58,391 nucleotides of DNA from an uncultured Muribaculaceae bacterium (GCA_964513435.1 CAZEMQ010000001.1:71883-130273); one strand, 5' to 3'. Positions 3,771 to 57,282 are shown, numbered from the stretch's first letter. The notes: generated by a model not told the origin, from the sequence alone. Numbers and translations: made by a program.

Positions 3771-4748
3771 ATCGGTGCTTAAACTTAATAATGCTGATAG
3801 TATTATAGCAGCATCATAATCATTATCAACTTTTGCAAGAGCTATTAAAACATCATCGTTGATAATACTATTTATATTTTTAGTTCTAACGTTTGCTAAC
3901 AAGTTATACCTCTTACCAGAAATAAGTTTATTAAATAATAATCTTTTCTATTGTTCACGAGTACCATGATTCAGAATATAATTGTAATACTATGTTAGCG
4001 CAAAAAATGTCTTTAATCCAACTGCACATATTCCAATACACTATTTACCAACTTGATTATCATTAATAGATTGATTTTTATTTAAGAAATTACCAGAAGT
4101 TCTAGTCTTAATTTCCTCATTTTCTAAAGAACGATTTCCAACGTCTTTTAATGGTCCAGTTGTACCATCTACAGATGTCTACGCTTGTATTAAATTAACA
4201 GGATCAATTATACTATCGTACATTCCTTCCATAATCTAATTATTAATAATATGATTCAATTTATCTGAACCAACATTATCATAATATGAATTATGCTAAT
4301 TAATAATATCTCCTAACTTTTTAAACATTCTTTGAACTTGTTCTTCTGTTTCTAAATTAAATCCAGATATTCTACTAAATTCAGTTATTCGATTAAATTC
4401 AGAAATAAACTATCTAATAATACTTTGATCAGGAATAATTAAATTCTAGTATTCTTTTAATAACTAACCTAACGATTCTATATCAGATGCTCCATGTAAA
4501 TTTAATTCAACATTTACGTCATCTTCAGATTCGTCAAAATTAAATAAATAACCATATTTATTAAATATATCTAATACATCATTTAAATTATTAGATTCTA
4601 TAAGTTTTACATTCCTTCCAGTAGGAATTGGAAGTGTTTTAGATGCTAGTAATTTATCAACAGATGTTATATCAGCATAAGGAGACCAAAGTTGTAGTAA
4701 ACCATTCTTATCTATACTAAATGTAGCAAAATTTCCTGCGTCTATATC
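3771..4748 (-). CDS. giant RNA-polymerase-like virion protein, exon 2 of 3
   Basis: 978 nt = 326 codons, starting GAT ATA GAC GCA GGA (DIDAGNF..) and ending ..AGC ACC GAT. Open apart from TAG codons. Both ends are defined by P1/IGS pairings of the flanking introns. Confidence 0.75.
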
Positions 4749-41963: not shown

Positions 41964-43112
41964 TTATTCAGTAACTTTTAAACCATCCGAAGATACAGTC
42001 AATGATGTTCCATCAAGTTTAACAGATACTTCATTATCTGTAATATTGATACCATCACCAGCAGTTAGATTATCTTGTTTTTCAGTTTGTAATTGCTCAA
42101 CAGTTGTACTCAAAGTATTAACCGTGCTATTCAAATTATTAACTGCATTGGTCAAAGATTCAATATCATGTGCAACAGAATCAAGACCTGGACTTCCATA
42201 ACCATCTACTGTATTAATAGTACCTATAGTAGCTAATGCAGCTTCAAACTCATCAGAAACAGTCTGGTTAACATAGAATACATGAGTAGTTCTAGATTTT
42301 ACTAAATCGCCTACAGCATTGTCTCCAAGAATACCTCTATTAACACAATAATGAATAGTATATTGATTATACTTAGCACCTATAATCGGAGCTTCATCTT
42401 GGTTAAGAGCAAGCCAACGAGTACGTTCGTAGGTAGGCAAACGTAAATTATGCAACAAGAACGGATAAGTACCAAAGCCTTCTTTTCCTACAAAATATGC
42501 TTCCGAGGTAGCAGTTACAGCATCATTAGAATCAACTTCTGTGATATCTTCTAACGATCTAACTACGTTATATTCACCCATACCATAATAAGCATCTCTA
42601 TCAAGTTTTTCAATATTTAAAATTTTAAACCTTTGATACTCATCGGTAGCTTCTATCGTGATATAAGTACCACTATTAGAAACATTCAACAATTTCCTAT
42701 TATAGACCATAATTTCGTACTTATTGATGGTCTTAATTAATTTTTCAGCAGTTGTAGCTGCATCTGTATCCCAAATAAAATCAACTGATAAAGGTTTACC
42801 TTTCCATTGAAGATCATTAGCATACAAAGAGCTTTGAGATGCTTGAGAGATACCAAGATAAATGTGTAATCTAAATATATCTCCGTCTGTTCCGCTCAAC
42901 TGTGACAAATCAATAGTCACTTTAGCAAATTCAGCATCATGTGCTTCTGCTTTATAAATAACATGAACGTTATTGGCAAGGAACTTGTTTACTCTTTTAA
43001 CATAAAAACTAGCAGGGTTAGTTCCATCTGCTGCCTGTGCTGACCACAACGGTTTACCTGTTGTGAAATCTCTGTTTGAATTAATTACGGTTGTTGTTGT
43101 AAATTGAAACAT
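41964..43112 (-). CDS. abundant-type virion structural protein (382 aa), auxiliary-capsid or head-fibre-like, TAG-free
   Basis: Intact track ORF with ATG and TAA. C-terminal coiled coil (..LTNAVNNLNSTVNTLSTTVEQLQTEKQ..) followed by short fibre-like repeats (GDGINITDNEVSVKLDGTSLTVSSDGLKV). Followed by a strong terminator. The role is inferred. Confidence 0.8.
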   Translation of the reverse strand: MFQFTTTTVINSNRDFTTGKPLWSAQAADGTNPASFYVKRVNKFLANNVHVIYKAEAHDAEFAKVTIDLSQLSGTDGDIFRLHIYLGISQASQSSLYANDLQWKGKPLSVDFIWDTDAATTAEKLIKTINKYEIMVYNRKLLNVSNSGTYITIEATDEYQRFKILNIEKLDRDAYYGMGEYNVVRSLEDITEVDSNDAVTATSEAYFVGKEGFGTYPFLLHNLRLPTYERTRWLALNQDEAPIIGAKYNQYTIHYCVNRGILGDNAVGDLVKSRTTHVFYVNQTVSDEFEAALATIGTINTVDGYGSPGLDSVAHDIESLTNAVNNLNSTVNTLSTTVEQLQTEKQDNLTAGDGINITDNEVSVKLDGTSLTVSSDGLKVTE

Positions 43113-43127
43113 AATTTAAAAAGTTAT

Positions 43128-44147
43128 TTAACCTTGTTGAGGTTGGGTTTGGGTTTGTGTCTATTGCTGAGCTGGATTGGCAATAGACTGTGTAACTACA
43201 GTATTAGTTTGCAATCTTGGATCAGCAGTGTTCTCCATCACCAACATTGTCAGCTCATTGATAATCTCCTAACATACATAATCTGGAAATTCCATAATCT
43301 ATGATGTATCTTCTGTAAGATCTACTTGCTCTTGAGTTAATCTAATTATTTGTGGAGTTTTAATATAATCTATCATTACTGCCTATAACTCAAAGACGGA
43401 TGAATCTCGTCCATATCTAATTTCGCACCTAACTGATGAAGAATTACCATATCTAACTCCAGCTTCTTTTTCCACTATAGATTTATTTGTAAATCCTGTA
43501 AGATCAATAGTTCTAGGTAAATTAGAATTAGGCCCAGTAGTTAAAGAACTTCCAGATCCAGGATCTACTTCATAGTCAGATTTAGTATCTGTACCTACTG
43601 TATTTCTATTAAGAACAGTTGTTGTTTCTATAGGATTAGTAGGTAAATCTACAGATGTATTTAAATTATGTATATAATAATAAGGTCTTTCCGGAAGAGG
43701 TCTATTATAAAAATCATTTAATACAATAGACCACGAATCAGCAGTAAGTCTTCTTGCAGCAAACTGTACATAATCTCCAGCGTTATAGCATTTAAATCTT
43801 TTGTTTAATTTATACACACATATACAGTTTAAAATATGTAGATAATCAAGAGGTAAATATACTTCATAAGTTGCTCCAAACAACGAAGCACTTCCAGTTT
43901 TCCAATTAGAAGTATCAACTCCACTTATGGTAGAAGTAATTTGCTATGGAATTAAGACAGTTGTAGATTTTAATACTCTTATGTCATCGGTAGTTTGCTA
44001 ATTAACATCATATATATTATATCGTTTGTTAATATATTGATTGATAGCTTTATTAATGTAGTAGTTAAAGTCCTATAGCAACATACTAGGTGCGTTTACT
44101 TTGCTTAGTTCTATTAACATACTTTCAAACACCTAACGGCTTGTCAT
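43128..44147 (-). CDS. head-associated protein (339 aa), possibly connector/adaptor-like
   Basis: ATG 44147 to TAA 43130-43128 = 1020 nt. Extends track ORF 43383..43883 at both ends through TAG codons. Q/T-rich C-terminal tail (..AQQ-TAG-TQTQTQPQQG). The function is a guess from position. Confidence 0.65.
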
Positions 44148-45141: not shown

Positions 45142-45267
45142 TCACGCTTCGCGTAAAATTACGCTACGATGTGGTGTAAAGCAAGCTATACCACAATATG
45201 ACATCATTACTAATCTGGAACCTGCTACATTGCTAGCTACTTCTCCTGAAGTCTTGCCATCGTATCC
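45142..45267 (-). CDS. putative major capsid protein, exon 12 (last)
   Basis: Follows the intron 3' end ..gataacacattG|GGATACGAT. 126 nt encoding GYDGKTSGEVASNVAGSRLVMMSYCGIACFTPHRSVILREA, then TGA and a terminator. More GC-rich than the flanks. The other two frames either read through the terminator hairpin or stop early. Confidence 0.65.
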   Translation of the reverse strand, partial: GYDGKTSGEVASNVAGSRLVMMSYCGIACFTPHRSVILREA

Positions 45268-45351
45268 CAATGTGTTATCGTGTAGCTTTTTATCTACACT
45301 TCTATAACTTACTTATTCGTTATAGTTCAGCATATATTTTTATCCTATATA

Positions 45352-46056
45352 TTATATTGTATAGTTAATTTTTTGATTTTGTTTAAGCTGTTCTATTTCT
45401 TTTTGCATTATTTTTATCAACTTATCTTTTTCTTCGTCCCTACGTTTTAATTCTTCAATATCTTCACTGTTTTGTTCAATTAACCATAATGCAGCTTGTC
45501 CACATTTTTGTAAATTAAATAACTTTAATTCTTCTGGACATCCTGTTTCTAAATTGCGTTTAGATTCTTTAAAGATTTGAAGAATTTCTTTCTTAGTTAA
45601 ATTTTTATTCAATCTATAAATAGTATCTTCAGAAATGTTTAACTTATCAGCAAGTTCTTTGTTACTTAATGATAATTTTCCGTAAGGTTGTATATCTTTA
45701 AACATATATTGATAACTTGCAGCTATATATGCTTTTTCAGAAAAAGATAAATTTGGATTATCAATGAATTCTAAATAAAATTTATCAAATTTAATTACCT
45801 TTTTAAAGAAATAGTAATTAGATCTACCTTTCTTTTTTACCGTAATGTACTCACATCTTATTAAATTATCTATTGCTTTTCTAATTGTATTGATGGCAGC
45901 ACCACTACGTTTTGATAATGTAGCTAATGATGGATAACATTCATGTTGCTCATTATCATAGCATTTTAAATATAAATATACAAGTACATCTGCCGGTTTT
46001 AATTGCGCTTCTTCTGTCATTTTTGATGGTAAAATAAAAAATTGTTCCTCTTTCAT
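45352..46056 (-). CDS. winged-helix/HTH DNA-binding protein (replication-initiator or regulator-like), 234 aa, intron-encoded, TAG-free
   Basis: ATG 46056 (the track ORF starts 12 nt upstream at a TTG). The N terminus matches the usual HTH_36-type pattern (FFILPSKM..LKPADVLVYLYLKCYDNEQHECYPSLATLSKRSGAAINTIRKAIDNLIRCEYITV). A second HTH (LSNKELADKLNISEDTIYRLNKNL) and a C-terminal coiled coil follow. I see no nuclease motif. Confidence 0.8.
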   Translation of the reverse strand: MKEEQFFILPSKMTEEAQLKPADVLVYLYLKCYDNEQHECYPSLATLSKRSGAAINTIRKAIDNLIRCEYITVKKKGRSNYYFFKKVIKFDKFYLEFIDNPNLSFSEKAYIAASYQYMFKDIQPYGKLSLSNKELADKLNISEDTIYRLNKNLTKKEILQIFKESKRNLETGCPEELKLFNLQKCGQAALWLIEQNSEDIEELKRRDEEKDKLIKIMQKEIEQLKQNQKINYTI

Positions 46057-46132
46057 AAATCGTATCAATTAATATATTATGCACAAATATATCAATCATA
46101 ATTCAATTTTTGAAATTAAAAAAATGTTAAAA

Positions 46133-46215
46133 CGCAAATTTGATATGATTCAAGGGCAAATTTAATACGACCAACCGCAAATTTAATATGGTTCGACCGC
46201 AAATTTAATATATAT
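46133..46215 (-). repeat. four iteron-like direct repeats (period 21-22 bp) upstream of the HTH gene
   Basis: Minus strand: TATTAAATTTGCGGtcgaacca / TATTAAATTTGCGGttggtcg / TATTAAATTTGCCCttgaatca / TATCAAATTTGCGTtttaaca. The GCAAATTT cores start on the plus strand at 46134, 46156, 46177 and 46199. An almost pure A/T tract with TAAGTATAG repeats lies immediately next to them (46205-46250). Confidence 0.7.
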
Positions 46216-46433
46216 ATCTATATTTAAACTATACTTAATATCTATACTTAAACGCTTCGCGAATCAAAAAATTTTAAATAAGGATATTGGACACTCGTGG
46301 AGATATTATATTTATTCAATCTCTATGCGTTACACTACTTAAATACCTTTCGCAATTATTTAAGTTAGCACGGTATTTTCATTTCAGAATCCACCGTTTT
46401 TTGCCCAATTCATTAATAACATTACTGTTATTA

Positions 46434-46786
46434 AGGGCAGAATGTTCTACCTACGCCTGAAAGTTTATTAGTAGTAAAGTCTTGACCCATAAGGGCAACT
46501 TTAGCGATAGCTGGAGTTCCAGATGTTTTATCAGCGGTAAGGTCGATACATACACCATAACCTTTATCAGGATATTCACGAGTCAATGCTCGATCAACTA
46601 CGAATGAAACCTGATTTCCGGCATAAACATACGAATCAAAGGTATTTCCTACCTTAATATAACCACCTTCACCACGATTAGCAGATTTTGAGTACATGTA
46701 AGTACCATCTGTTCTATAATTAGCAAGATATTCACCAAGAACTGTATTTATATCTTGCCATAATTTGCGGTTGACTACAAAAATCC
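46434..46786 (-). CDS. putative major capsid protein, exon 11
   Basis: Follows ..agaataacataattG|GG ATT TTT GTA. 353 nt (2 nt + 117 codons) ending TGC CCT| at 46434. The 12 N-terminal residues and the stop codon of track ORF 46431..46820 are intron sequence. Confidence 0.65.
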
Positions 46787-47946
46787 CAATTATGTTATTC
46801 TGAAACTTTAATAGTTTCAATTCTTATACTTTCGTATAAGTTCAGACTATATCATTATCTTATAATGGTTTAATGTTAGAAGTGTTACCATAAAAATATC
46901 TCCATCTATATCCTCCACATCTTTTTTGTGTTCCTTTAATTGCAGCTATGATATTTGCACTAGATTTAATTCCATTTGCATCAGCTGCTTCTTTAATTGA
47001 AGAATAAGATTCTAAAAAGATTCCTTTGTCATTATATTTAGCAACAGGAGATAAATGATTATTGTTTTTAGGAACAAATTTATTTTTATATGACCAAAAA
47101 TAACCGTATGCTTGATTAGATTTATTATTACATACATTCCAAATAGATGTTTTTGCTGAAATGCTATTTTCAAATTGTTTAGATGCTTCTACTATTGATT
47201 TCCAACATTTGATTAAATTACCTTGTAAATCGAACTAATACACCGATTTCTCTTTTTTCTCAACTGGAGATATATCACTCATATCGTCATTAAAATACTT
47301 CCATTGATAATTTCCGCAGTATTTAGAATTTCCAGATAAGTTTTGTTTTATTGAATTTAAATTTAATGCCTATGATGCTTCTTTAATTGAATCCCACACT
47401 CTTATAAACTTACCTTCTAAAGTGTACTGCGCTATTTTTCTAGAATGCTCATATTGAGATATAATTCCTCCAACTGAAAGATTATAAGTATCTGTTCTTT
47501 TAACAAAATCAATATTTACTATTTCAGCTTCTTTCGCATAAGCTAATTTTTTTCCTTCTTCTGTATCTGGAAATATATATAAAGTTTCTCTTTTAAAATT
47601 TTCATAACCATATTTCTATACAGCTTTCGGAAATCCTTTTATTTTCTTTTTTCTATCTTTTTTTGTAACACCACATCCAATATATCCATCAAATATATCT
47701 GGGTTAGTCCTATGCACCCCTACATAGATTTTACCATTAATTAAATTAGTAGTTTTATAAACTATATATTTCATAAGATATTAAACGTTTAGTCGTTGAA
47801 CATTCTTCCCTTTCGGAAGCCTTTGCTGCTGATTGTCTAATTCTCTAATTTTTAAACATTTATGTTTAGAATTACTTCTTACATTGTAGTTTAGAGACTC
47901 TAAAGATTTCCCAGCAATTTGAATAATTTATTTTTACAGCTTTTTC
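46787..47946 (-). mobile_element. group I intron I carrying a GIY-YIG ORF
   Basis: Core: aaattgctgggaaatc, agacaatcagcagc, gttcaacgactaa. The ORF follows, then gatatagtctgaac (46845-46857), P9 hairpins and ataacataattG. The 5' splice site is placed by codon phase at GCAGCTT| (47947); ATAGCTT| (47956) is also possible. The P1 candidate AAGCUGU gives U-A rather than U.G. Confidence 0.6.
46860..47774 (-). CDS. GIY-YIG homing endonuclease (304 aa) with three in-frame TAG
   Basis: ATG 47774 to TAA 46862-46860 = 915 nt. MKYIVYKTTNLINGKIYVGVH..FDGYIGCG..YNLSVGG, then repeated C-terminal W.S..EA....GY.W-type DNA-binding modules. The track misses it because of the TAG codons. Confidence 0.75.
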
Positions 47947-48112
47947 AAGCTGCCCAAGCTATTTTTGTTAACTTGTTGCCGGTATCTGCCTATGCTTTAT
48001 CAGCCATATCATTCATTATCATGTTGAACAATACAAGATTAGGTTTACCAACGTAACAATATTTATTAGCAGCCGCTTCTATTTGGGGAATCGCCCCTTC
48101 GCCTATATAAAT
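47947..48112 (-). CDS. putative major capsid protein, exon 10
   Basis: Follows ..acatagagaaatattG|ATT TAT ATA GGC. Reads IYIGEGAIPQIEAAANKYCYVGKPNLVLFNMIMNDMADKA-TAG-ADTGNKLTKIAWAA plus a final T that completes a TGG codon with exon 11. The 3' boundary is uncertain by 9 nt. An alternative P1 (GCUGCU/GGCAGC) would shorten the exon to 45 nt but breaks the frame with exon 11. Confidence 0.5.
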
Positions 48113-49462
48113 CAATATTTCTCTATGTTACCATAGAAGCTTAGACTATATCTTTAACTTATATATTCAAATATAAAACCTTTTGAAGATTTTCTTTCTT
48201 TTCTACAAACTTTTTGACAACTGGGAAATACTTTTTTGCATTCAGTTACACTATCCCAAATTTTTATCAAATTACGATTTAAATCATATTGAGCCACTTT
48301 TATAGCTTTTAAATTTTGTTTATTATAAGGTTCAATAGACTTAGATTTTATATAACTCCATCTATATCCTCCACAAGTTCTGTTATTTTTTATAGCTCTA
48401 ATAATATTACCATGACTTGTTTTAGGAGTATTGTTTATGGCATCTTTTATAGATTTATATTCTTTATCAAAAGTTCCATTTAACAAATATCTATAAACAG
48501 GAGTAATATTAGTTAATAATTTACCAGATTTTTCTTCAAGTAATTTGGTAATATCTTCATCTGCTCTGAGAAAATAATAACCACAACATGTAGTTCTATT
48601 AAATACAGAATTTGATATAGAATCTCTAGGTATATCTAATTTCAAAGCAGCTTCAGAAGCATTTTCAAAAGTATTTAATAACATTCCATCTTTATTATAT
48701 TGAAATACATATCCCCTAGAACTTAATTTGTATTCTGAAATATTAATTTTACTAATATCTGACCAAAACGAATTATTAAAACTTCTTTTATCTTTAATGC
48801 ACATTGCAATTCTATCTTTATTTATATTGTATGTAGTAGTAATATCTTTAATAGAATTCCATGTTTTTATCAGATTTCCGTTTAGATCAAATTCGTAAAT
48901 TGTTTTTGACATTATTGGAGGAATTTGTCCACCTGCTATCATATTGTAAGTATCAGTTCGTTTTACAAATTCTTCTGTTACTAACCACGCTTCTAAATCT
49001 AAAGCATCTTCAAGATTATCGAATACTTTTAAAGTATATCTATAAAAAGCAGACGTTCCGTACTTTAAAATAGCTTTATGTAAATGTGTTTTTCCTTTAT
49101 TATATGAACTAGGTTTATTAATATAAGCCCCACATCCAATATATCCATCAAATACTTCAGGGTTCTCTGTTTCGTGTACTCCAATATAAATTTTATTGTT
49201 TATTTTGTTTGTAGTTAAATATACTATGTATTTCATAAGTTTTATACTTTACTTTAAGTTATTTCCCATTTCCATCTTATAGATGTACGATTAAAAATCT
49301 AGTCGTTGAACTTTCTCTACAACTACATTATTAATGCTTGTTTTACGTAGAGTTTAGCTGCTGATTGTCCATAAATAGGAGTTCCCAGCAATTAAAGAAA
49401 TTAATTATTAATAGGTTTTCACCTATCTGACCCATTTATTAAACGGCGATTCTTAATTCCCC
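48113..49462 (-). mobile_element. group I intron H carrying a GIY-YIG ORF
   Basis: P1: exon GACCU (49467-49463) pairs with GGGUC. GNRA hairpin ATAGGTgaaaACCTAT. Core: taattgctgggaactcc, ggacaatcagcagc, gttcaacgactag. The ORF follows, then gatatagtctaag (48141-48152). Confidence 0.65.
48154..49236 (-). CDS. GIY-YIG homing endonuclease (360 aa), TAG-free
   Basis: Intact track ORF: MKYIVYLTTNKINNKIYIGVHETENPEVFDGYIGCG...YNMIAGG, plus three C-terminal repeat modules. Occupies the P8 loop of intron H. Confidence 0.9.
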   Translation of the reverse strand: MKYIVYLTTNKINNKIYIGVHETENPEVFDGYIGCGAYINKPSSYNKGKTHLHKAILKYGTSAFYRYTLKVFDNLEDALDLEAWLVTEEFVKRTDTYNMIAGGQIPPIMSKTIYEFDLNGNLIKTWNSIKDITTTYNINKDRIAMCIKDKRSFNNSFWSDISKINISEYKLSSRGYVFQYNKDGMLLNTFENASEAALKLDIPRDSISNSVFNRTTCCGYYFLRADEDITKLLEEKSGKLLTNITPVYRYLLNGTFDKEYKSIKDAINNTPKTSHGNIIRAIKNNRTCGGYRWSYIKSKSIEPYNKQNLKAIKVAQYDLNRNLIKIWDSVTECKKVFPSCQKVCRKERKSSKGFIFEYIS

Positions 49463-49533
49463 AGGTCTTCCAGTATCAGGATCACTTATTGTGCTCTTTC
49501 CATTGACATCCACCGAGCCTTTATTGAGCAGTA
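49463..49533 (-). CDS. putative major capsid protein, exon 9
   Basis: Follows ..gattaatatattG|TA CTG CTC. 71 nt. Its first 2 nt complete the codon started by the last T of exon 8. Reads LLLNKGSVDVNGKSTISDPDTGRP. Confidence 0.55.
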
Positions 49534-49787
49534 CAATATATTAATCTTATGTTACCATAAAATTCAGACTATATCTTCATTTTATATCCTATTACCGTTT
49601 ATAAAATGCCTCCCTTTTCCACTTACCTGTGTACTCTACTTGTTTATTCACTAATATGTTTCTTATTAGTTATACTTTCGATAGTCGTTGAACTTTACAT
49701 GAAAATTTTCATGTATTAGCTGCTGATTGTCCACCTCTGGAGTTTCCAGCAATTAAAGAGGTTTATACAGAGCTACTGTTACTCAGA
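49534..49787 (-). mobile_element. group I intron G, ORF-less (254 nt)
   Basis: P1: exon ACAGGGU pairs with IGS GCUCUGU (7 bp, ending in U.G). Core: ttaattgctggaaactcc, ggacaatcagcagc, gttcaacgactatcg, gatatagtctgaa (49563-49575). Confidence 0.7.
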
Positions 49788-49968
49788 ACCCTGTGTTCAT
49801 AGCGTACATAAACGTATCAAGAAGTTCTTTCTCTTTCTTCAACATTTTATATACACCTTCATGTTTTGTATGATCTTTATCATCAGATATACTCATGAAT
49901 ACATTCTCTTGAATAGCAAACAAGCTAGACCAGCTAGCATCAGCACGGAATGTAGTCATGTAATTACG
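49788..49968 (-). CDS. putative major capsid protein, exon 8
   Basis: Follows the P9 hairpin cttatatgaaaatataag and ..tattttttG|CGT AAT TAC. 181 nt encoding RNYMTTFRADASWSSLFAIQENVFMSISDDKDHTKHEGVYKMLKKEKELLDTFMYAMNTG plus 1 nt. Corresponds to track ORF 49783..49971 without its TTG start and its TGA. Confidence 0.65.
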
Positions 49969-51362
49969 CAAAAAATACTTATATTTTCATATAAGATTAG
50001 ACTATATTTTTAATTTTCCTAATGAAATTTAAATACATAACCTGCTGTAGTATTTGCTAATCCCCTAAGTACTCTATTTATACAAGATACTTTAGCATTA
50101 AACTCCTTTGCAGATTGTTGTACTGAATCACAAGTTTTAATAAAATTTCCAAGTTTATCATACACATCAACTTTCTTTTTACGGTTTTTATTTACAACAG
50201 GTTCTATCTTGTCAAATTTTTCTAATTTAATTTGATAATCCTTGTATAAACCATTTCTTCTATTAATTACATCATGTACAGAGCTATTAGATTTGACATT
50301 CATAAATTTCATCAATTCTTTTATATCTTTAAATTCCTAAAGATATTCTCCTGATAACGTATATAAATAAAATTTTTTATTTTTTAAAGACTACTTTGGT
50401 TTAGGTTTAAACTCGTCATATAATTTAAAAGAATAATAATATGATTTATTAACTAAATTAAATCCTTGAATTGCAGTTATTAAACTAGAAGTAGTCATTT
50501 CTTCATATTTTGCAGCTTCTGTAAGTGAAGCAAACTCCTATAATAATTTTCCATTTTTATTATATTTATATACTTTCTTTTTAGGAGTATGTTTTGAAAA
50601 ATTCTGAACGTCTATTGATTTATCTCTACTCCAATAATATCCAAATAAAGTTTCTCTAAAATGTATAGCATTTTTTACAGCTTGTTCAGAGCAATTGAAA
50701 AACTATATAACGTCAGAATCGTGTTCCCATTCTTTAAGTAAATTTCCTTCTAAATCGAATTGATTAACGGGTAAATCACACCTATACTCTGCTCCTCCTT
50801 CAATCATATTGTAATTTGTATCTAACTGTATAAATTCTCTAGTTACTAATTCCTTTTCTTTTAAGAGAGCTTCTTCTCTTGTATCGTAAATATACAAAAT
50901 ACTTCTAGAAAATTTATCAGTTCCGTATTTTTTAACTGCATACTAAAAAGCCGTTTTTGGTTTCATGTACGATGATGGTTGATTTATGTATACATTACAT
51001 CCTATATAACCATCAAATTTATTTGGATCTATCGTTCCATGAACTCCGATGTAAATTTTATTATTAACTATGTTTGTTGTACAATATACTATATATTTCA
51101 TATAAAATTATCCTCTCTTTCGGTTAATTACCTACCTATATTAATATTTAGTCGTTGAACTTTATACAATCTATCGTAATTTACGATCCTCGTATTGTAC
51201 TTTAGCTGCTGATTGTCACATAATAACAATTTTTCAAACATTCACGTCTATCTTTACAAATTACGTTGTAGTATTGTTATCTTTATGATATTTTAGCAAT
51301 TTAAAGGATTTGTTTAGAAAGCATTTTAAGCTGCTTTCAAAGAGACACCGTAATTTATTAAA
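49969..51362 (-). mobile_element. group I intron F carrying a GIY-YIG ORF
   Basis: P1: exon AGAGACAU (51370-51363) pairs with IGS GUGUCUCU (8 bp, ending in U.G). Core: aaattgct with an extended P5 insertion, gacaatcagcagc, gttcaacgactaa. The ORF follows, then aatatagtctaa (49996-50008). Confidence 0.7.
50010..51101 (-). CDS. GIY-YIG homing endonuclease (363 aa if the last TAG is read through) with 5-6 in-frame TAG
   Basis: ATG 51101. Track ORFs 50703..50897 and 50019..50315 are in frame. 1092 nt to TAA 50012-50010, the same length as paralogue 54203..55294. If the TAG at 50021-50019 terminates instead, the protein is 360 aa. Confidence 0.75.
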
Positions 51363-51404
51363 TGTCTCTCTACCTGAGACTAAAATTTACTATAGCCCTC
51401 TTCC
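51363..51404 (-). CDS. putative major capsid protein, exon 7
   Basis: Follows ..attagagtaaacG|GAA GAG GGC; the same taaacG ending is seen in intron 4749..5112. 42 nt encoding EEGYSKF-TAG-SQVERH. Confidence 0.5.
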
Positions 51405-52734
51405 GTTTACTCTAATATTTCTATCAGGACTGACTATATCATTAACTTTTTAACTTAAATACTTATATGAATAACCTTTTTGTGTTTTATTTGTACCATT
51501 AAGTACTTTCCATACAGAAGTACCGTTCTCTTTTTCTGCTGCTGTCGCAGATTCGTATATTTTTATTAAATTTCCTTGTAAATCATACTTTCCAACGCTT
51601 CTCTTTTCATTTTTCTTTTTACAAGCGTATTTCGGCAATTCTTCTAAACTCCATAAAAATCCGCCTTTACATGTAGACTTTTGTTTTAAAGATTTAGATA
51701 TATTTGAAGTTGGATTATCACGTTCAGCTTCTATTTGAGAATTATATTTTTGAATAAATTTTCCTGTTTCACCATTATATTTACAAATAGATCTTCCTTC
51801 AACATATCTTAGTCTAGCTTTAGAATAATTGTCGTCTTTTACTTCACAAAAATAATATTTGTCTTTATAAAGTATTCCAAATATTCTACAGTTTTTAATA
51901 GTAATTATATTAATTTTTAAAGTTTTACTAGCTTGTGTTTGATTATCAAATTCATACAACAAAGTACCCTCTTTGGAATATACGTATATGGGAATCTGAT
52001 GATTCAAACCTAAATTATAAGTACTAATGTCTAATTTATCAAATTTAAAATTAGTCCATAAATAATTTTTTCCTTTAGTCTTTAAAGCGATAGCATGATT
52101 TATTAATGAATGATGACAATTCATTTCTACAGATGCTTCTTTTATACTACTATATTCTTTAATGAAATTTCCTTCTAAATCATATTGATAACAAGGAACT
52201 ACAATATAAAAATTATCATCAATTCCTCCTAAAATCATGTTATATACATCATCTCTTGCAAGAAATTCTTCATTTACAAGTTCTCTTTCTAAGTTAGATG
52301 CTTCTTCTAAACTATTAAAAACCGCTAATGTTTTTCTTCTGAAGTTTTTAGGTCCATATTTCTTTACAGCAAACTGAAAATGAGTTTTAGGATAGTTGTA
52401 GGTATTCGGTTGAGTAACTAAAACTCCACATCCAATATACCCATCGAATACTTCAGGATTTATAGTTTTATGTACTCCAATGTATATTTTTCCATTAATT
52501 AAATTTGTTGTTTCATAAACTATATACTTCATATTTATTTAAATTTTAAAGTTATTTACCATTTCCATTATAAAATAATGTACGCCTTGCGGCTAGTCGA
52601 TGAACTCCTATAAAGTACTGTCTCATATCAAACTAGTTACTAAATAAAAGCTGCTGATTACCATATATTTCTACTTAGGCTTCCAGCAATTAAGTAAATT
52701 TGCTAAGCAACTCACGCTGCTAAGATCCGAATTG
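51405..52734 (-). mobile_element. group I intron E carrying a GIY-YIG ORF
   Basis: P1: exon CUGAGU (52740-52735) pairs with IGS GCUUAG (one internal G.U, ending in U.G). Core: ttaattgctggaagcc, ggtaatcagcagc, gttcatcgactagcc. The ORF follows, then gatatagtcag (51430-51441). Confidence 0.6.
51450..52532 (-). CDS. GIY-YIG homing endonuclease (360 aa), TAG-free
   Basis: Intact track ORF: MKYIVYETTNLINGKIYIGVHKTINPEVFDGYIGCG...YNMILGG, plus C-terminal repeat modules. Confidence 0.9.
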   Translation of the reverse strand: MKYIVYETTNLINGKIYIGVHKTINPEVFDGYIGCGVLVTQPNTYNYPKTHFQFAVKKYGPKNFRRKTLAVFNSLEEASNLERELVNEEFLARDDVYNMILGGIDDNFYIVVPCYQYDLEGNFIKEYSSIKEASVEMNCHHSLINHAIALKTKGKNYLWTNFKFDKLDISTYNLGLNHQIPIYVYSKEGTLLYEFDNQTQASKTLKINIITIKNCRIFGILYKDKYYFCEVKDDNYSKARLRYVEGRSICKYNGETGKFIQKYNSQIEAERDNPTSNISKSLKQKSTCKGGFLWSLEELPKYACKKKNEKRSVGKYDLQGNLIKIYESATAAEKENGTSVWKVLNGTNKTQKGYSYKYLS

Positions 52735-52782
52735 ACTCAGATAATTCAGGCATAGCGACCGATTGGAACGTACAGGTGTCAC
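52735..52782 (-). CDS. putative major capsid protein, exon 6
   Basis: 48 nt encoding VTPVRSNRSLCLNYLS if the 3' splice site is ..aagtagccaG|GTG. The alternative ..aagtaG|C (52786) together with the alternative start of exon 5 (54156) also keeps the frame. More GC-rich than the flanks. Confidence 0.4.
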
Positions 52783-54118
52783 CTGGCTACTTAAATAATA
52801 TTTATTTAAAGACTATATCATTAACCTATGTTTTAGGTCAATACTCGCTTCAATCTATTATTTTAAATACATATCCTTTATGTGTTTTATACTTTTCTTG
52901 AATACAATGTGCAACACCTCTTCCCCATACTTTAGAACAAGCATTTAATGATGGGTAAGTATCAAGTAAATTCCCATCTAAATCGTATCTCCCAATTTTT
53001 TTTCGTTTGTTTTTAGGAGGTGCATTATATATTTCTAATTTATCTAAACTCCACATAAAACCATTATCATCAACTTTTTTATTTTTAATAAACTTAGTTA
53101 TATTACTATAAGGATTTGCTTTTTCTGCTTCTAACTGTGTATTATATCCTTCTATAAAATTACCATTATAATCATATTTATAAACAGGTCTGTTTTTAAT
53201 ATAGATAGAATTTGCAATATCATAAGAATCAGCTTCAACAAATGAACATATGTACATATCTTTTATTATATGTCCAAATCTAGCAGATGTTCCAACATCT
53301 AGACTTACATTTAATCCCATAAATTGAGCAGCTTTTGTTAAACTGTCACAAGTCTTTATAAACTTTTTAGTATGGGAATCATAAATAGAAACTTGTATTG
53401 GTTTATTTCTTTCTGTATTACTATAACCTTCTAATTGAAGTTTATTTACTTTAAAATTTGTCCAATAACAGTTTTTAATTTTTATATTATATATTATAGC
53501 TTCTCTAATCGAATTAGGATTACAATGTACAGATTTGGCAGCTTCTTTAATACTCTCATATTCTGTAATAAAATTTCCTTCTAAATCATATTGATATGTA
53601 ATGATACTTCTATACTCCTGAAGCTCTCCGCCTATAACCATATTATATACATCATATCTACTTAAAAATTCCTCATTAACTAAATGTTCTTCTTCTTTAT
53701 AAGCGGCTTCTGCTGTATTAAAAACGGCAAGAGTTTCTCTTTTAAAATTTTTAATTCCAAATTCTCTTACTGCCTGTTGCATTTTGGTTTTACCTTTTTG
53801 ATAAGTGTATGGTTTATAAATCCATATCCCATTACCTAAATAACCATCAAATTCATAAGGTTTATCTGTTTTATGTACTCCTATGTAAATATAACCGTTT
53901 ATTAAATTAGTAGTTTTATAAATTATGTATTTACTCATAATAAATTTACTCCTTTCGGATAGTCGTTGAACGTTATTTTAAATTTAATTTAAAAGAATTG
54001 CTTCCGTGTTAAAATTTTAGTTTAAAATCTTCGCTGCTGATTACCTTTAGGGCTTCCCAGCAATTCAAGTATTTGTTTGTATAGTTATTACTAACTATAG
54101 GATGCTAGTTTTTGGTTA
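52783..54118 (-). mobile_element. group I intron D carrying a GIY-YIG ORF
   Basis: P1: exon GGAUGU (54124-54119) pairs with IGS GCAUCC (ending in U.G). GNRA hairpin ATAGTTAgtaaTAACTAT. Core: gaattgctgggaagccc, ggtaatcagcagc, gttcaacgactatcc. The ORF follows, then gatatagtcttt (52810-52821). Confidence 0.6.
52850..53938 (-). CDS. GIY-YIG homing endonuclease (362 aa), TAG-free
   Basis: Intact track ORF: MSKYIIYKTTNLINGYIYIGVHKTDKPYEFDGYLGNG...YNMVIGG, plus C-terminal repeat modules. Confidence 0.9.
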   Translation of the reverse strand: MSKYIIYKTTNLINGYIYIGVHKTDKPYEFDGYLGNGIWIYKPYTYQKGKTKMQQAVREFGIKNFKRETLAVFNTAEAAYKEEEHLVNEEFLSRYDVYNMVIGGELQEYRSIITYQYDLEGNFITEYESIKEAAKSVHCNPNSIREAIIYNIKIKNCYWTNFKVNKLQLEGYSNTERNKPIQVSIYDSHTKKFIKTCDSLTKAAQFMGLNVSLDVGTSARFGHIIKDMYICSFVEADSYDIANSIYIKNRPVYKYDYNGNFIEGYNTQLEAEKANPYSNITKFIKNKKVDDNGFMWSLDKLEIYNAPPKNKRKKIGRYDLDGNLLDTYPSLNACSKVWGRGVAHCIQEKYKTHKGYVFKIID

Positions 54119-54169
54119 ACATCCGTCAACATCAAGAATGGTATCGTAGTTATTATCAATTAAACGAAC
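54119..54169 (-). CDS. putative major capsid protein, exon 5
   Basis: 51 nt encoding VRLIDNNYDTILDVDGC if the 3' splice site is ..gggaaatataG|GTT. The alternative ..gtttaattG|ATA (54156) is frame-compatible only when paired with the alternative start of exon 6. Confidence 0.4.
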
Positions 54170-55443
54170 CTATATTTCCCAATAATCCATAAATAGACTA
54201 TATCACTTATTATATTTAAATATATAATCTCCAAAATATCTATCACCTTGTTGAATATTTTTAATTTTAGATGAAGGAACTTTATATTTTTCTCTAACTT
54301 CTTTAATCGAATTTAAAGTTTCTATAAAGTTTCCATATTTATCGTAAATGTTTATTGTAATTCCTCTACCTATTCGTTTGTTTGGAACTTTTTCAACAGG
54401 TTTTATGGAAATATAAAAGTCTTTATACCAGCCATTATTATTATAAATTATATGGTTCATATAATCCCATGAATACAAATTTATAACATTCATAATTTCT
54501 TTGCCTTTGTACTGTCCTATATAAACATTATCAACGGTATATACATAAAATACCTCTGACATATAATTTCTTCTTGGCTTTGGGATAAACTAGTCTATTA
54601 ATTTATTAGAAACATAATACTACTTCTTAATAAGTTTCTAATATTTAATTGCACGACTTAATTCTCCAGTATCATAATTTATATATCTAGCACATTCTGT
54701 TTGTGATATAAATTCTTTTAATAATTTTCCATCTTTATTGTATAAATATATAGTATTAGTAATATTTTTGTTAGAATATTCACTAATATCAATTGTAGGA
54801 GATGTTGACCAATAAGAATCTAAAAACGCACACTTATTTCTTTTTGGACCATCAAATCTTGATCTAGGATAACCATAAAATTCATAGCAATCTTCCGAAA
54901 TATCCCATTTTTTAATTAAATTTCCATCGTAATCAAATTGATATAAAGGTTTATATCGTTCTTCGTATTCTCCTCCTAATGTCACGTTATAAGTGTAACT
55001 TTGTGTTATAAATTCTTCAGTTACAATTTCACGTTCTTTGTCGTATGCTTCTTTTGCTGTATCGTAAATAAATAAAGTAGTTCTTTCAAAAGCATCAACT
55101 CCATATTTTTTAACAGCATACTAAAAAGGAGATTTTGGATATTTATAAGTACTAGGCTATTGAATCTTTACTCCACATCCAATATATCCATCAAAAATAC
55201 TTGGATTTTCTGTTTTATGTACTCCTATGTAGATTCTATTAATTCCATTAATTTTAGATTTCTTATTTATAGTCAAGTATACAATATATTTCATAATAAT
55301 TCAGTTTTTCAATTATTAAATAATCTACACCTCACGGTTAGTCGTTGAACGCTGTTGTCATCACAACCACGCTGCTGATTACTAATTAGTTTCCAGCAAT
55401 TTAAAGAATTTATTTTAAAACGAGACAATTAATTGGGATTTTC
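54170..55443 (-). mobile_element. group I intron C carrying a GIY-YIG ORF
   Basis: P1: exon AAACGAGAU (ends at 55444) pairs with IGS GUCUCGUUU (9 bp, ending in U.G). Core: aaattgctggaaac, gtaatcagcagc, hairpin gttgtgatgacaac, gttcaacgactaacc. The ORF follows; its TGA overlaps the P7 3' strand (TGAtatagtcta, 54196-54205). Confidence 0.65.
54203..55294 (-). CDS. GIY-YIG homing endonuclease (363 aa) with five in-frame TAG
   Basis: ATG 55294 to TGA 54205-54203 = 1092 nt. Merges track ORFs 54638..54985 and 54203..54562 (same frame) with an N-terminal part hidden by TAG codons at 55159-55157 and 55123-55121. MKYIVYLTINKKSKINGINRIYIGVHKTENPSIFDGYIGCG...YNVTLGG. Confidence 0.75.
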
Positions 55444-55566
55444 ATCTCGTTTCCGAATTGGTCTTGACACACATTGACATTGTTGTTTGGTTTTATCAAT
55501 TCTAAAGATGTCATACTTCTGGAAGTAGTTCTCTTTAAACGCCATTGTTATTTCTGATCCGTTTTC
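55444..55566 (-). CDS. putative major capsid protein, exon 4
   Basis: Follows ..aagataacataattG|GAA AAC GGA. 123 nt = 41 codons encoding ENGSEITMAFKENYFQKYDIFRIDKTKQQCQCVSRPIRKRD. The 3' end is set by the 9-bp P1 of intron C. A splice site 6 nt downstream (..GAAAAU|) is a weaker in-frame alternative. Confidence 0.55.
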
Positions 55567-56490
55567 CAATTATGTTATCTTACGGGCTTTTTATCCCATA
55601 ATTCTTATACTTTACCATTGTATAAGTTCAGCATATATTTTCATCCTTTAAAGGATGTTGAGTACTCGTGGAAATATTATTTCAATTTCTATGCGTTACA
55701 ATAAATAATATTTTGGAAATTTATAATTCATTGATGGAATTAAATTATAATATTTGTCTAAGAATTCCATTATTTTTAAAGTACCTTTTGTTGAAATATA
55801 AGGTCTATAACCATAATTAGGTCTATCTTCATACTTATAATGCTTATACATACGAAATTCTACTTCGAAGATTTGATTAAATTTATTAGTAATTTTTATT
55901 AATTCTTCTAAAGAAAAACTTTCTAAACATAGAGTAATTCTAAATTGAGTTGGAATTCCTTGTTTATTATATTTAATTCTTAAACATCCATCATCTAAAT
56001 ACATTAATAAAAAAGTAAATTCTGTGAATTTATTAATATATTCGTCAGGAACTATTTTTATACGTTTATTATTTTTAGTAATATAAAGATCTTCTCTTAA
56101 TTGAGTTATCCAGTCTGTTCTATTTGTACTTAATCTATATAATAAATACGTTTTATCTTTTGTAGTTTTATTATGTGGTTTAATTGTACATTTACAGTCT
56201 GGCAGCAATTCAAAAAGTTCTTTTTTGAATTGTAGATAATCTAAATTCTTACTAGTATGAGTAATTTCACAGGAAGAACGACCTTTTGGAGTTCTCTGTT
56301 TGTTAATAGATCCGTCTGCTAATATTGTTCCTAATAATGCAGATTTTATTTCAAATTCGTTATTAAATAATTCTTTTAAGTTCATAGACTTTCTATTTTA
56401 TATCAAAAATATTATTTATCTCGGTATTATCCTTTAAATTTTTGGAGGACTTCACCGATTTTACTCAATTCAATACGTTATTACTAACGT
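55567..56490 (-). mobile_element. group I intron B2 (variant P7 subclass) carrying a LAGLIDADG ORF
   Basis: Starts with a GUAA-capped hairpin ACGTTAgtaaTAACGT, then ttgaattgag and TCGGT..ACCGA. The ORF follows; its TAA lies inside the P7 5' strand (ttgTAAcgcatag). Then P8 catcctttaaaggatg, P7 3' strand atatatgctgaac (55626-55638), P9 hairpins and ataacataattG. Confidence 0.6.
55696..56385 (-). CDS. LAGLIDADG homing endonuclease (229 aa), TAG-free
   Basis: Intact track ORF with two LAGLIDADG-type motifs (SALLGTILADGSI and FLLMYLDDGCL). Confidence 0.85.
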   Translation of the reverse strand: MNLKELFNNEFEIKSALLGTILADGSINKQRTPKGRSSCEITHTSKNLDYLQFKKELFELLPDCKCTIKPHNKTTKDKTYLLYRLSTNRTDWITQLREDLYITKNNKRIKIVPDEYINKFTEFTFLLMYLDDGCLRIKYNKQGIPTQFRITLCLESFSLEELIKITNKFNQIFEVEFRMYKHYKYEDRPNYGYRPYISTKGTLKIMEFLDKYYNLIPSMNYKFPKYYLL

Positions 56491-56559
56491 AAGGGGCGAA
56501 TTTTCACCCGTTTCAGCAGGAACTTCTGCGAATTCTACGTGTTTGATGTTATTTGTCTC
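56491..56559 (-). CDS. putative major capsid protein, exon 3 (69-nt micro-exon between two introns)
   Basis: Lies between a complete standard intron core (B1) and a complete variant core (B2). Reads ETNNIKHVEFAEVPAETGENSPL in phase 0 and is more GC-rich than the flanks. The start could instead be 56556. Skipping this exon would also keep the frame, so it needs RNA evidence. Confidence 0.5.
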
Positions 56560-56769
56560 CGAATTTAGACTATATCATTTACTATGATTTAATATTTGTA
56601 ATTAAATATACAATATATTTCATAATAATTCAGTTTTTCAATTATTAAAAAAATAATTTACAGATTTCTCCTAGTCGTTGAACGCTGTTGTCATCACAAC
56701 CACGCTGCTGATTATTTTATAAACTCCCAGCAATTTAAAGAATTTAACGAGATCAAGACATAATTATTC
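56560..56769 (-). mobile_element. group I intron B1, ORF-less derivative with a GIY-YIG remnant (210 nt)
   Basis: P1: exon GAGGUU (56775-56770) pairs with IGS GAUCUC (one internal G.U, ending in U.G). The core from the P3 strand through the hairpin gttgtgatgacaac and gttcaacgacta closely resembles that of intron C. It keeps only ATGAAATATATTGTATATTTAATTACAAAT.. (MKYIVYLITN..) of the endonuclease gene before gatatagtctaa (56566-56577). Confidence 0.6.
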
Positions 56770-56961
56770 AACCTCCCATTCAAACACCATTGAACTACTC
56801 GAAATATCAAATTTACTAGGTGTTTCTCCTTTGTAAAAGACATTTCTCAAACCATCTGTGATGAAATTTAAAGTGTTATCAGTGTACATTCTGGCTACAA
56901 CACCAAAGCGATACGGTTTAACGCCAATATACTTACTCCAATCTTCAACTGTTTTTGTGTC
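56770..56961 (-). CDS. putative major capsid protein, exon 2
   Basis: Follows ..aagataacattttG|GAC ACA AAA. 192 nt = 64 codons encoding DTKTVEDWSKYIGVKPYRFGVVARMYTDNTLNFITDGLRNVFYKGETPSKFDISSSSMVFEWEV. Corresponds to track ORF 56764..56964 without its TTG start and its last 2 codons. Confidence 0.65.
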
Positions 56962-57215
56962 CAAAATGTTATCTTATAGGCTTTTTATCCTATAAATCAT
57001 ACAATTTATCATTTTGTATGGTCAGACTATATTTTACTTATAATAGTTCCTGTTTTCGTGTTAATATTATTGGTAGACTCCTCAATTATTAGTCGTTGAA
57101 CCTTTCTTCTTACCTTTATGTCATTCAGAAGATTTGGCTGCTGATTATCCCATAGTTAGTTGCCATAATGATGGACTTCCAGCAATTTACAGGATTTTAT
57201 ATGGGCAACACGTTC
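56962..57215 (-). mobile_element. group I intron A, ORF-less (254 nt)
   Basis: P1: AUGGGU (57221-57216) pairs with IGS GCCCAU (57206-57201), 6 bp ending in U.G. Core: aaattgcttggaagtcc, gggataatcagcagcc, gttcaacgactaa (57103-57092), atatagtctgacc (57033-57021). Two P9 hairpins (atacaa..ttgtat and atagg..cctat). Confidence 0.75.
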
Positions 57216-57221
57216 ACCCAT
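57216..57221 (-). CDS. putative major capsid protein, exon 1 (ATG GGT only)
   Basis: ATG GGT is the only start that is both in phase with exon 2 and ends at the P1-defined splice site. An in-frame TTG 45 nt upstream (57266-57264) would give a 51-nt exon 1 instead. Confidence 0.45.
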
Positions 57222-57282
57222 AGTGGGTATTCTACTTGTAAAACTTGCAACTAACATATTCTTTCAATAAATAAAAATTAAA

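Follow-up and report, generated by a model that had tools for sequence, protein, structure and literature searches.

Opposite use of TAG by sister intron endonuclease genes within one capsid gene of a TAG-recoded crAss-like phage

Why would sister homing endonuclease genes (HEGs), lodged at the same structural position in group I introns of a single gene, follow opposite policies for a single codon? This question is raised by a stretch of 58,391 nt from an uncultured Muribaculaceae bacterium assembly (GCA_964513435.1, CAZEMQ010000001.1:71883-130273), referred to below as the window, in which the HEGs of introns C, F and I of a major capsid protein gene contain in-frame TAG codons and the HEGs of introns D, E and H contain none. 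Coordinates are counted from the first base of the window, and the genes, exons and introns given below all lie on the minus strand. The window has a G+C content of about 28% and every long open reading frame (ORF) is on the minus strand. Taking TAG as a sense codon raises the coverage by long ORFs from 26 kb to 62 kb, and TAG then makes up about 42% (0.42) of the glutamine (Gln)-type codons (CAA, CAG and TAG) across these ORFs, with a background TAG:CAG ratio of about 4.5:1. In conserved genes, in-frame TAG is found where homologs carry Gln. Because related loci also encode crAss-specific Pfam families such as CrAss_Ring_1, the gain in ORF coverage and the share of TAG identify the window as part of a crAss-like phage that translates TAG as Gln (code 15). 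For crAss-like phages in general, TAG recoding has reportedly been proven by proteomics. The hosts of this phage are probably Bacteroidota, and the phage encodes its own RNA polymerase.

HEG C (54203-55294) encodes 363 amino acids (1092 nt with its TGA stop) and has TAG at five of its 12 Gln-type codons (55159-55157, 55123-55121, 54640-54638, 54622-54620 and 54592-54590). HEG F (50010-51101) also encodes 363 amino acids in 1092 nt, stop included, ends with TAA at 50010-50012 and has TAG at six of 15 such codons (50945-50943, 50705-50703, 50540-50538, 50393-50391, 50339-50337 and 50021-50019). HEG I (46860-47774; 304 amino acids plus stop), which is devoid of the last NUMOD-like module, has TAG at three of 11 (47618-47616, 47372-47370 and 47237-47235). 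No TAG is found among the 10 Gln-type codons of HEG D (52850-53938; 362 amino acids; seven CAA, three CAG), the 11 of HEG E (51450-52532; 360 amino acids; nine CAA, two CAG) or the five of HEG H (48154-49236; 360 amino acids; all CAA). In-frame TAA and TGA codons are absent from all six genes. A first-pass annotation of this DNA had described D, E and H as free of TAG, C, F and I as carrying it, and C and F as full-length genes of exactly 1092 nt with no TAA or TGA; the counts, coordinates and lengths were all confirmed. The six HEGs are old paralogs sharing 27-45% identity (41% between C and F, 45% between D and E), and their GC contents are equal (0.25-0.27). The phage is present in the samples from which the DNA runs SRR7039258 and SRR7039262 were made. 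Two independent Logan contigs hold identical C-D-E or D-E segments, and another contig (L093) is colinear with positions 55520-53209 of the window at 85% nucleotide identity, so the contrast between C and D is not an assembly artifact. In L093, HEG C has five TAGs, four of them shared with the window and one CAA/TAG flip in each direction, and the adjacent HEG D has TAG at none of nine Gln codons over the 243 codons covered.

We next considered whether C, F and I could be decaying pseudogenes, their TAGs being premature stops, given that the standard code would truncate all three at codons 46-58. This explanation is hardly conceivable. The whole genome uses TAG as a sense codon, and C, F and I contain neither TAA, TGA nor frameshifts. 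In codon alignments, 11 of the 14 HEG TAGs face CAA or CAG in at least one ortholog, and five of the 14 occupy positions that are mostly or wholly Gln among orthologs; in the L093 ortholog of C (89% identity), four of the five TAG positions are conserved, with a ratio of nonsynonymous to synonymous substitutions (dN/dS) of 0.08. Relative to their orthologs, the six HEGs have dN/dS values of 0.06-0.30, similar in TAG-bearing genes (C, 0.08-0.14; F, 0.19-0.21; I, 0.17-0.30) and in TAG-free genes (D, 0.13; E, 0.13-0.14; H, 0.08-0.23); such low values indicate that none of them is a pseudogene. Full-length orthologs are numerous, and an AlphaFold model of HEG C with Gln at its TAG positions reaches a mean pLDDT (predicted local distance difference test) of 88. 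The pseudogene interpretation of C, F and I is thus refuted by intact frames, purifying selection and the localization of TAGs at Gln sites: TAG is a sense codon and the six genes are intact. This agrees with the earlier argument that the TAGs do not reflect simple decay. The comparison of dN/dS between TAG-containing and TAG-free copies that had been proposed reveals no difference between classes, and the relatives display neither the frameshifts or other stops nor the loss of TAG positions as sense codons that would contradict that argument. The last TAG of F (50021-50019), previously considered either a stop or a Gln followed by two more codons, faces the sense codons GAG, ATT or AAA in F orthologs of 361-367 amino acids; it is therefore read as Gln, and F ends at the TAA at 50010-50012.

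The first TAG of C, F and I falls at codons 46-58, within the catalytic domain. Hence these three genes yield no active enzyme without suppression of TAG, while D, E and H can, and the distinction originally drawn between suppression-dependent recoded copies and independent TAG-free copies is real as far as dependence is concerned.

Is this split more than chance? The TAG fractions of C (0.42), F (0.40) and I (0.27) are typical of the genome. D, E and H together have TAG at none of 26 Gln-type codons against the background of 0.42 (P of about 7e-7), and depletion is significant for D (P = 0.004) and E (P = 0.003) taken singly. The six HEGs are heterogeneous (Monte-Carlo p = 0.02), and the probability of at least three zero-TAG copies among six is 9e-4. 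Since C/F and D/E are paralogous pairs, the six are not independent draws and the effective contrast is between about four lineages. A survey of 226 related loci (IMG/VR, ENA and Logan), in which a context was classified as recoded when its late genes need TAG as sense to open, provided 81 HEGs of the family in recoded late-gene contexts, non-redundant at 90% identity. Forty-three of the 81 contain no TAG, compared to 5.1 expected from the local background; only three lie between 0 and 0.25 times the background, and the remaining TAG-bearing genes are spread around it. Pooled codon counts are 384 CAA, 62 CAG and 0 TAG in the TAG-free class, and 272 CAA, 60 CAG and 141 TAG in the TAG-bearing class. 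As in the window, both states coexist in nine genome groups; 11 groups are entirely TAG-free and four entirely TAG-bearing. The dichotomy between C, F and I and D, E and H is thus non-random and recurs in relatives.

One locus of the survey (L062) had initially been labeled as standard-code with TAG-bearing HEGs. Its TAGs are confined to an extension at the N-terminus and to the C-terminal end of the alignment; they are probably artifacts of read-through by the ORF caller, and one of them is probably the real stop codon. With artifacts of this type, counts of a single TAG in the survey may be too high, and the excess of TAG-free genes is then a conservative figure.

Residence time alone could in principle generate such a dichotomy: D, E and H, like other TAG-free HEGs, would have been acquired recently from standard-code phages or TAG-free pools, C, F and I would have resided in recoded genomes long enough to drift to the background share, and no selection on TAG would be involved. 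The introns are indeed highly mobile, being present or absent among near-identical genomes. For instance, the E-type intron is present, absent or reduced to a truncated ORF of 262 amino acids in near-identical 160-kb crAss-like genomes (L007-L016, which hold P0034), which shows that introns are still being gained and lost, and endonucleases still decaying, at this capsid site. Between distant genomes, the HEGs are 62-76% identical and the capsids only 45-58% (L056 versus the window, L019, L065, L200 and others), which indicates that the introns spread horizontally among divergent crAss-like phages. Orthogroups and insertion sites are common to standard-code and recoded genomes, and the TAG-free state is the majority state in every orthogroup, the window F being the only TAG-bearing member of its own. 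On the other hand, the sampled loci include no close donor. D, E and H have their nearest relatives (81-88% amino acid identity; synonymous divergence, dS, of 0.8-0.9) in recoded genomes, and these relatives are themselves TAG-free or nearly so. Across this sample, amino acid identity between copies from a recoded and from a standard-code genome never rises above 70%, window copies reach at most 67% with a standard-code copy, and HEGs without TAG do not resemble standard-code relatives more than HEGs with TAG do (p = 0.47). Recent transfer between codes was thus not found. Furthermore, the six HEGs are alike in GC content, and C and D have remained neighbors across a dS of about 0.7 with their states still opposite.

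The substitution patterns are also informative. In TAG-free ortholog pairs of which both members are in recoded genomes, TAG is nearly absent at a dS of 0.9-1.2, while CAA and CAG have been exchanged at four of eight sites in D and at one of 10 and three of nine sites in E. C-type pairs exchange CAA and TAG at two of 11 conserved Gln sites at a dS of 0.72 and at six of 10 at a dS of 1.26, a seventh site of the latter pair being TAG/CAG. D, E and H pooled with two LAGLIDADG endonuclease ORFs (55696-56385 in intron B, and 2592-3683) and with the ORF of insertion J (45352-46056), all TAG-free, have nine CAG and no TAG. Retention of CAG with never a TAG looks like selection against TAG, and the pooled 62 CAG versus no TAG of the survey would be hard to reach otherwise. 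Finally, gene-specific avoidance of TAG exists beyond mobile ORFs, as a late-block ORF of 382 amino acids (41964-43112), a non-mobile core gene, has 13 Gln codons and no TAG; its homologs are nearly TAG-free in many recoded relatives (0/8, 0/16, 0/13 and others), while the adjoining gene (43128-44147) has 40-50% TAG in the same relatives. Taken together, the codon flips at given dS, the distances across codes and this persistently TAG-poor core gene favor gene-specific selection over simple recency, and from these comparisons we infer selection against TAG in D, E and H. An origin by residence time only is, in our opinion, unlikely.

Selection could also act through mobility rather than through timing. 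TAG-free lineages would then persist because they can home into genomes of either code, any gain of TAG would lock a lineage into recoded genomes, and the timing of infection would be irrelevant. This explanation is compatible with the occurrence of related HEGs at the same capsid sites in both codes, such as H at amino acids 275-277 in L079 and L099, where the HEGs are 66-67% identical and the capsids 49%, and with a bimodal pattern that has few intermediates. However, all cross-code pairs are old (at most 70% identical), TAG-free copies show no excess similarity to standard-code copies, and a non-mobile core gene displays the same avoidance, so that mobility is unnecessary for the pattern. 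We consider that code-neutral mobility has a rather poor chance of being the explanation.

The joint interpretation that we favor, on a balance that tips only narrowly its way, is that all six HEGs are intact, that the TAGs of C, F and I are ordinary Gln codons whose translation depends on suppression, that selection keeps D, E and H free of TAG, and that the family has two states connected by a ratchet. The TAGs of C, F and I would have arisen lineage by lineage, probably from CAA through CAG to TAG, until they reached the genome share, and synthesis of the corresponding enzymes would require active TAG suppression. D, E and H, like the LAGLIDADG ORF and the intron-J ORF, would be held TAG-free as if TAG were still a stop; they would be translatable with or without suppression while retaining CAG, which is a single transition away from TAG. 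Once a first TAG is tolerated, others would follow, and this ratchet fits with the observation that about half of the relatives are TAG-free and the others at background with few intermediates. The cause of selection could hypothetically be translation before the code switch, perhaps allowing early action on co-infecting genomes; alternatively, it could be spread via standard-code phages. The two temporal expression regimes put forward in the first-pass annotation fit these data and are plausible as a reading of the codons. A more general proposition is that selfish endonucleases are sorted by the code switch, as by a gate, into a suppressor-independent class selected to remain TAG-free, which could act before the switch (on co-infecting genomes during replication, for instance) or function in any code, and a late, suppressor-locked class; a one-way ratchet would lead from the first to the second, with rapid equilibration after the first tolerated TAG. 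We offer it tentatively and hold it to be doubtful. If true, mobile elements of alternative-code phages could evolve their dependence on the code, as a trait affecting both regulation and host range.

Several observations weigh against the favored interpretation. As the HEGs are embedded in a late gene with TAGs of its own, D, E and H could be expressed early only from internal promoters, and no convincing upstream motif separating TAG-free from TAG-bearing HEGs was found. ARAGORN detected no tRNA in the 58-kb window, hence no suppressor tRNA(CUA), the gene for which may lie outside this window. Gln-type codons are few in each HEG (5-15), the absence of TAG in H taken singly (0/5) falls short of significance (P = 0.07), and the local backgrounds behind the survey expectation were estimated with a crude ORF caller. 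The TAG state also flips within orthogroups: C orthologs at 66-77% identity in four other recoded genomes have no TAG, and F in the window stands alone in its orthogroup in bearing TAG. The state is also in part a trait of the genome, with a within-genome concordance of 0.72 (permutation p = 0.007). These flips and this concordance indicate that it is not a stable trait of each endonuclease. Lastly, intron mobility implies that unsampled standard-code phages may have donated TAG-free copies. In another C ortholog (L056), six TAGs are found, one of which is common to the window C.

The distance from the intron R element to the ATG is alike in the two TAG classes. A 20-nt motif, ATGGAAATGG[G/T]AAATAACTT, occurs twice in the window (49256-49275 and 52549-52568, minus strand), with about 0.04 occurrences expected, and sits 20 and 17 nt upstream of the starts of H and E, respectively. 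Among relatives, this motif is not specific to a class (3/23 versus 2/29).

The assignment of the six proteins to the GIY-YIG family has moderate support. The catalytic invariants (Y, Y, G, R, E and N) are kept in all six, the motifs KYI[VI]Y and IY[IV]GV can be recognized, and the six share invariant R71, E87 and N103 with 50 relatives. The N-terminus of HEG F matches SegE_GIY-YIG (PF19835) at 29.2 bits for a cut-off of 25, PF01541 gives sub-threshold matches in four of the six, and PHROG 314, annotated as homing endonuclease, matches all six. The N-terminal domain of the HEG C model aligns with the I-TevI catalytic domain (1LN0) with a target-normalized TM-score of 0.62 at a non-significant Foldseek E-value. 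A sequence-profile search of the PDB returned no match, and Foldseek with the full-length model gave weak matches at the domain level. DNA-binding modules of the NUMOD or helix-turn-helix type are present: NUMOD1 (PF07453) is above its cut-off in five HEGs and below it in C (18.9 bits for a cut-off of 22.8), the NUMOD-like module of I-HmuI (PF22083) exceeds its cut-off in I alone and comes close to it in three further HEGs, and the I-HmuI DNA-binding region is matched by Foldseek with a probability of 0.92. At E<=1e-10, the family comprises 3251 database proteins. The best 120 of these include full-length orthologs of C, F, D, E and H at 59-89% identity, at least 24 being of C type and at least 28 of F type, and no I-type protein; orthologs of I (56-72% identical) come from IMG/VR loci. 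Each orthogroup is bound to one capsid site across genomes (amino acids 137/138 for C, 177-180 for E, 191/192 for F, 275-277 for H and 322-324 for I), and homing itself is predicted from this sequence pattern.

The HEGs are carried by group I introns of predicted boundaries and recognizable core elements that interrupt the capsid gene at amino acids 137/138 (C, 54188-55443), 160 (D, 52790-54118), 177 (E, 51404-52738), 191 (F, 49969-51361), 275 (H, 48113-49462) and 322 (I, 46787-47970). The catalytic core is supported by both sequence elements and a covariance model. The P, Q, R and S elements occur in order, with at most two mismatches, in introns C, D, E, G, H and I and in two further ORF-less introns (57215-56962 and 56769-56560); in intron F, Q, R and S are in order and P was not found upstream of Q. 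Intron G (49534-49787), ORF-less and 254 nt long, is the only one to exceed the gathering score of the Rfam model RF00028 (80.7 bits), and partial matches of 15-43 bits correspond to the ORF-split halves of introns E, F, H and I. In each of the six introns with a HEG, 15-75 nt separate R from the start of the ORF, and S begins between one base before the end of the stop codon (C, where the two overlap) and about 30 nt after the stop. As they are localized between R and S, all six ORFs are therefore in the P8 loop, where the first-pass annotation had placed six full-length GIY-YIG genes. The stop of HEG C overlaps the S element TGATATAGTC (54203-54212, minus strand), so the ribozyme core constrains the end of this ORF.

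The major capsid protein gene (45143-57257) has 12 exons and 11 insertions, of which three are ORF-less, six contain a GIY-YIG ORF, one a LAGLIDADG ORF and one a winged-helix ORF. Exons were mapped onto MT835470, which has an uninterrupted, standard-code capsid gene of 475 amino acids, and their boundaries were predicted from this homology with a U preceding the 5′ splice site and a G as the final intron base. They lie at 57257-57216, 56961-56770, 56559-56506, 55566-55444, 54187-54119, 52789-52739, 51403-51362, 49968-49788, 49533-49463, 48112-47971, 46786-46449 and 45267-45143, the shortest measuring 42-54 nt. Predicted removal of the insertions restores a continuous capsid frame: the product spliced in silico has 474 amino acids, is colinear with the uninterrupted homolog and matches the PHROG family of major head proteins. 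It contains TAG at four of its 15 Gln-type codons, two of these TAGs aligning with Gln of the standard-code homolog. The capsid gene, a late gene, thus itself depends on TAG suppression. Megablast of the region against annotated phage records returned nothing useful, and tblastn matched only two unannotated gut phage records, of which MT835470 is one.

The two remaining insertions, B (55567-56505) and J (45268-46448, the last of the gene), contain the LAGLIDADG ORF and the winged-helix ORF, respectively. The P/Q/R/S core of the other nine was not found in either of them, and they have in common the motif AAAATATATGCTGAAC directly downstream of their ORFs. The J product is similar to replication-initiator and DnaD-like winged-helix proteins, and four direct repeats of ATTAAATTTGC-like units, reminiscent of iterons, lie within the 160 bases upstream of its gene (46057-46216). 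Insertion J may be a different kind of mobile element. Elsewhere in the window, the LAGLIDADG ORF at 2592-3683 encodes N-terminal helix-turn-helix repeats and is flanked by the TAG-rich ORFs 206-2353 and 3759-4328, which may be parts of one interrupted gene.

Alternative phage codes are thought to time the translation of late genes, and there is little evidence on genes that must escape such a gate. The sister endonucleases provide a natural matched comparison, since they share fold, intron position and transcript context while their codon policies are opposite. If selection maintains the TAG-free state, certain intron endonucleases must be active while TAG is a stop, which would imply either internal promoters within late-gene introns or regular traffic between codes. 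Either outcome would alter our view of intron spread and of phage-phage competition in the most abundant phages of the human gut. In practice, a gene caller that fixes a single code for a whole contig will cut C, F and I short or mis-annotate the genes next to them.

Several known systems resemble the one described here. I-TevI of phage T4 combines a GIY-YIG catalytic domain with a modular DNA-binding domain, its ORF is looped out of a group I intron, and its expression is temporally restricted, providing a precedent for regulated endonuclease synthesis. The window HEGs share with it an N-terminal GIY-YIG-type domain (KYIVY...IYIGV, with invariant R, E and N, and the above structural similarity to 1LN0), C-terminal NUMOD DNA-binding modules and an ORF looped out of a phage group I intron. 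They differ by their low sequence similarity to it, evident from the lack of a PDB profile match and of a significant Foldseek E-value, and by their three to four NUMOD-type repeats. Moreover, I-TevI is controlled by promoter timing and RNA structure, whereas the gate proposed here would be the genetic code. Intron endonucleases also take part in competition during co-infection, as in marker exclusion by T-even phages and with the mobile intron of PhiPA3 and PhiKZ. Such systems would supply a reason for an endonuclease to be active early against a co-infecting genome.

Intron-rich capsid genes and alternative coding have been described for Zeta and Delta crAss-like phages by Yutin et al. 2021 (PMC7886860), whose PolB example has intron ORFs with recoded stops. 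In both cases group I introns with endonuclease ORFs interrupt the capsid gene of crAss-like phages, which often use alternative codes. The capsid example given there has four insertions and no alternative coding, whereas the window gene has 11 insertions and four exon TAGs. The passages of that article on introns and coding contain no comparison of recoded codons among intron ORFs, and the portions of the related literature on recoding and introns mention neither a TAG-avoiding class of intron endonucleases, nor opposite sister copies in one gene, nor bimodality across a family.

The closest parallel is the gene-specific recoding in alternative-code phages presented by Borges et al. (bioRxiv 10.1101/2021.08.26.457843), in which the in-frame stops of a TGA-enriched group I intron endonuclease of a TGA-recoded Agate phage are proposed to delay its synthesis until late infection. 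In that account as in ours, a stop codon is read as sense, its use varies gene by gene, and synthesis of an endonuclease is proposed to be gated by suppression, the timing being a proposal in both. The system described here differs from the Agate phage as there presented in that TAG is read as Gln, the phage is crAss-like, the host gene is late rather than early, and sister endonucleases of one gene avoid the recoded codon, as do about half of the 81 relatives. The idea of a gated endonuclease is thus already partly in print, and the class of sister endonucleases that avoid TAG is the new element.

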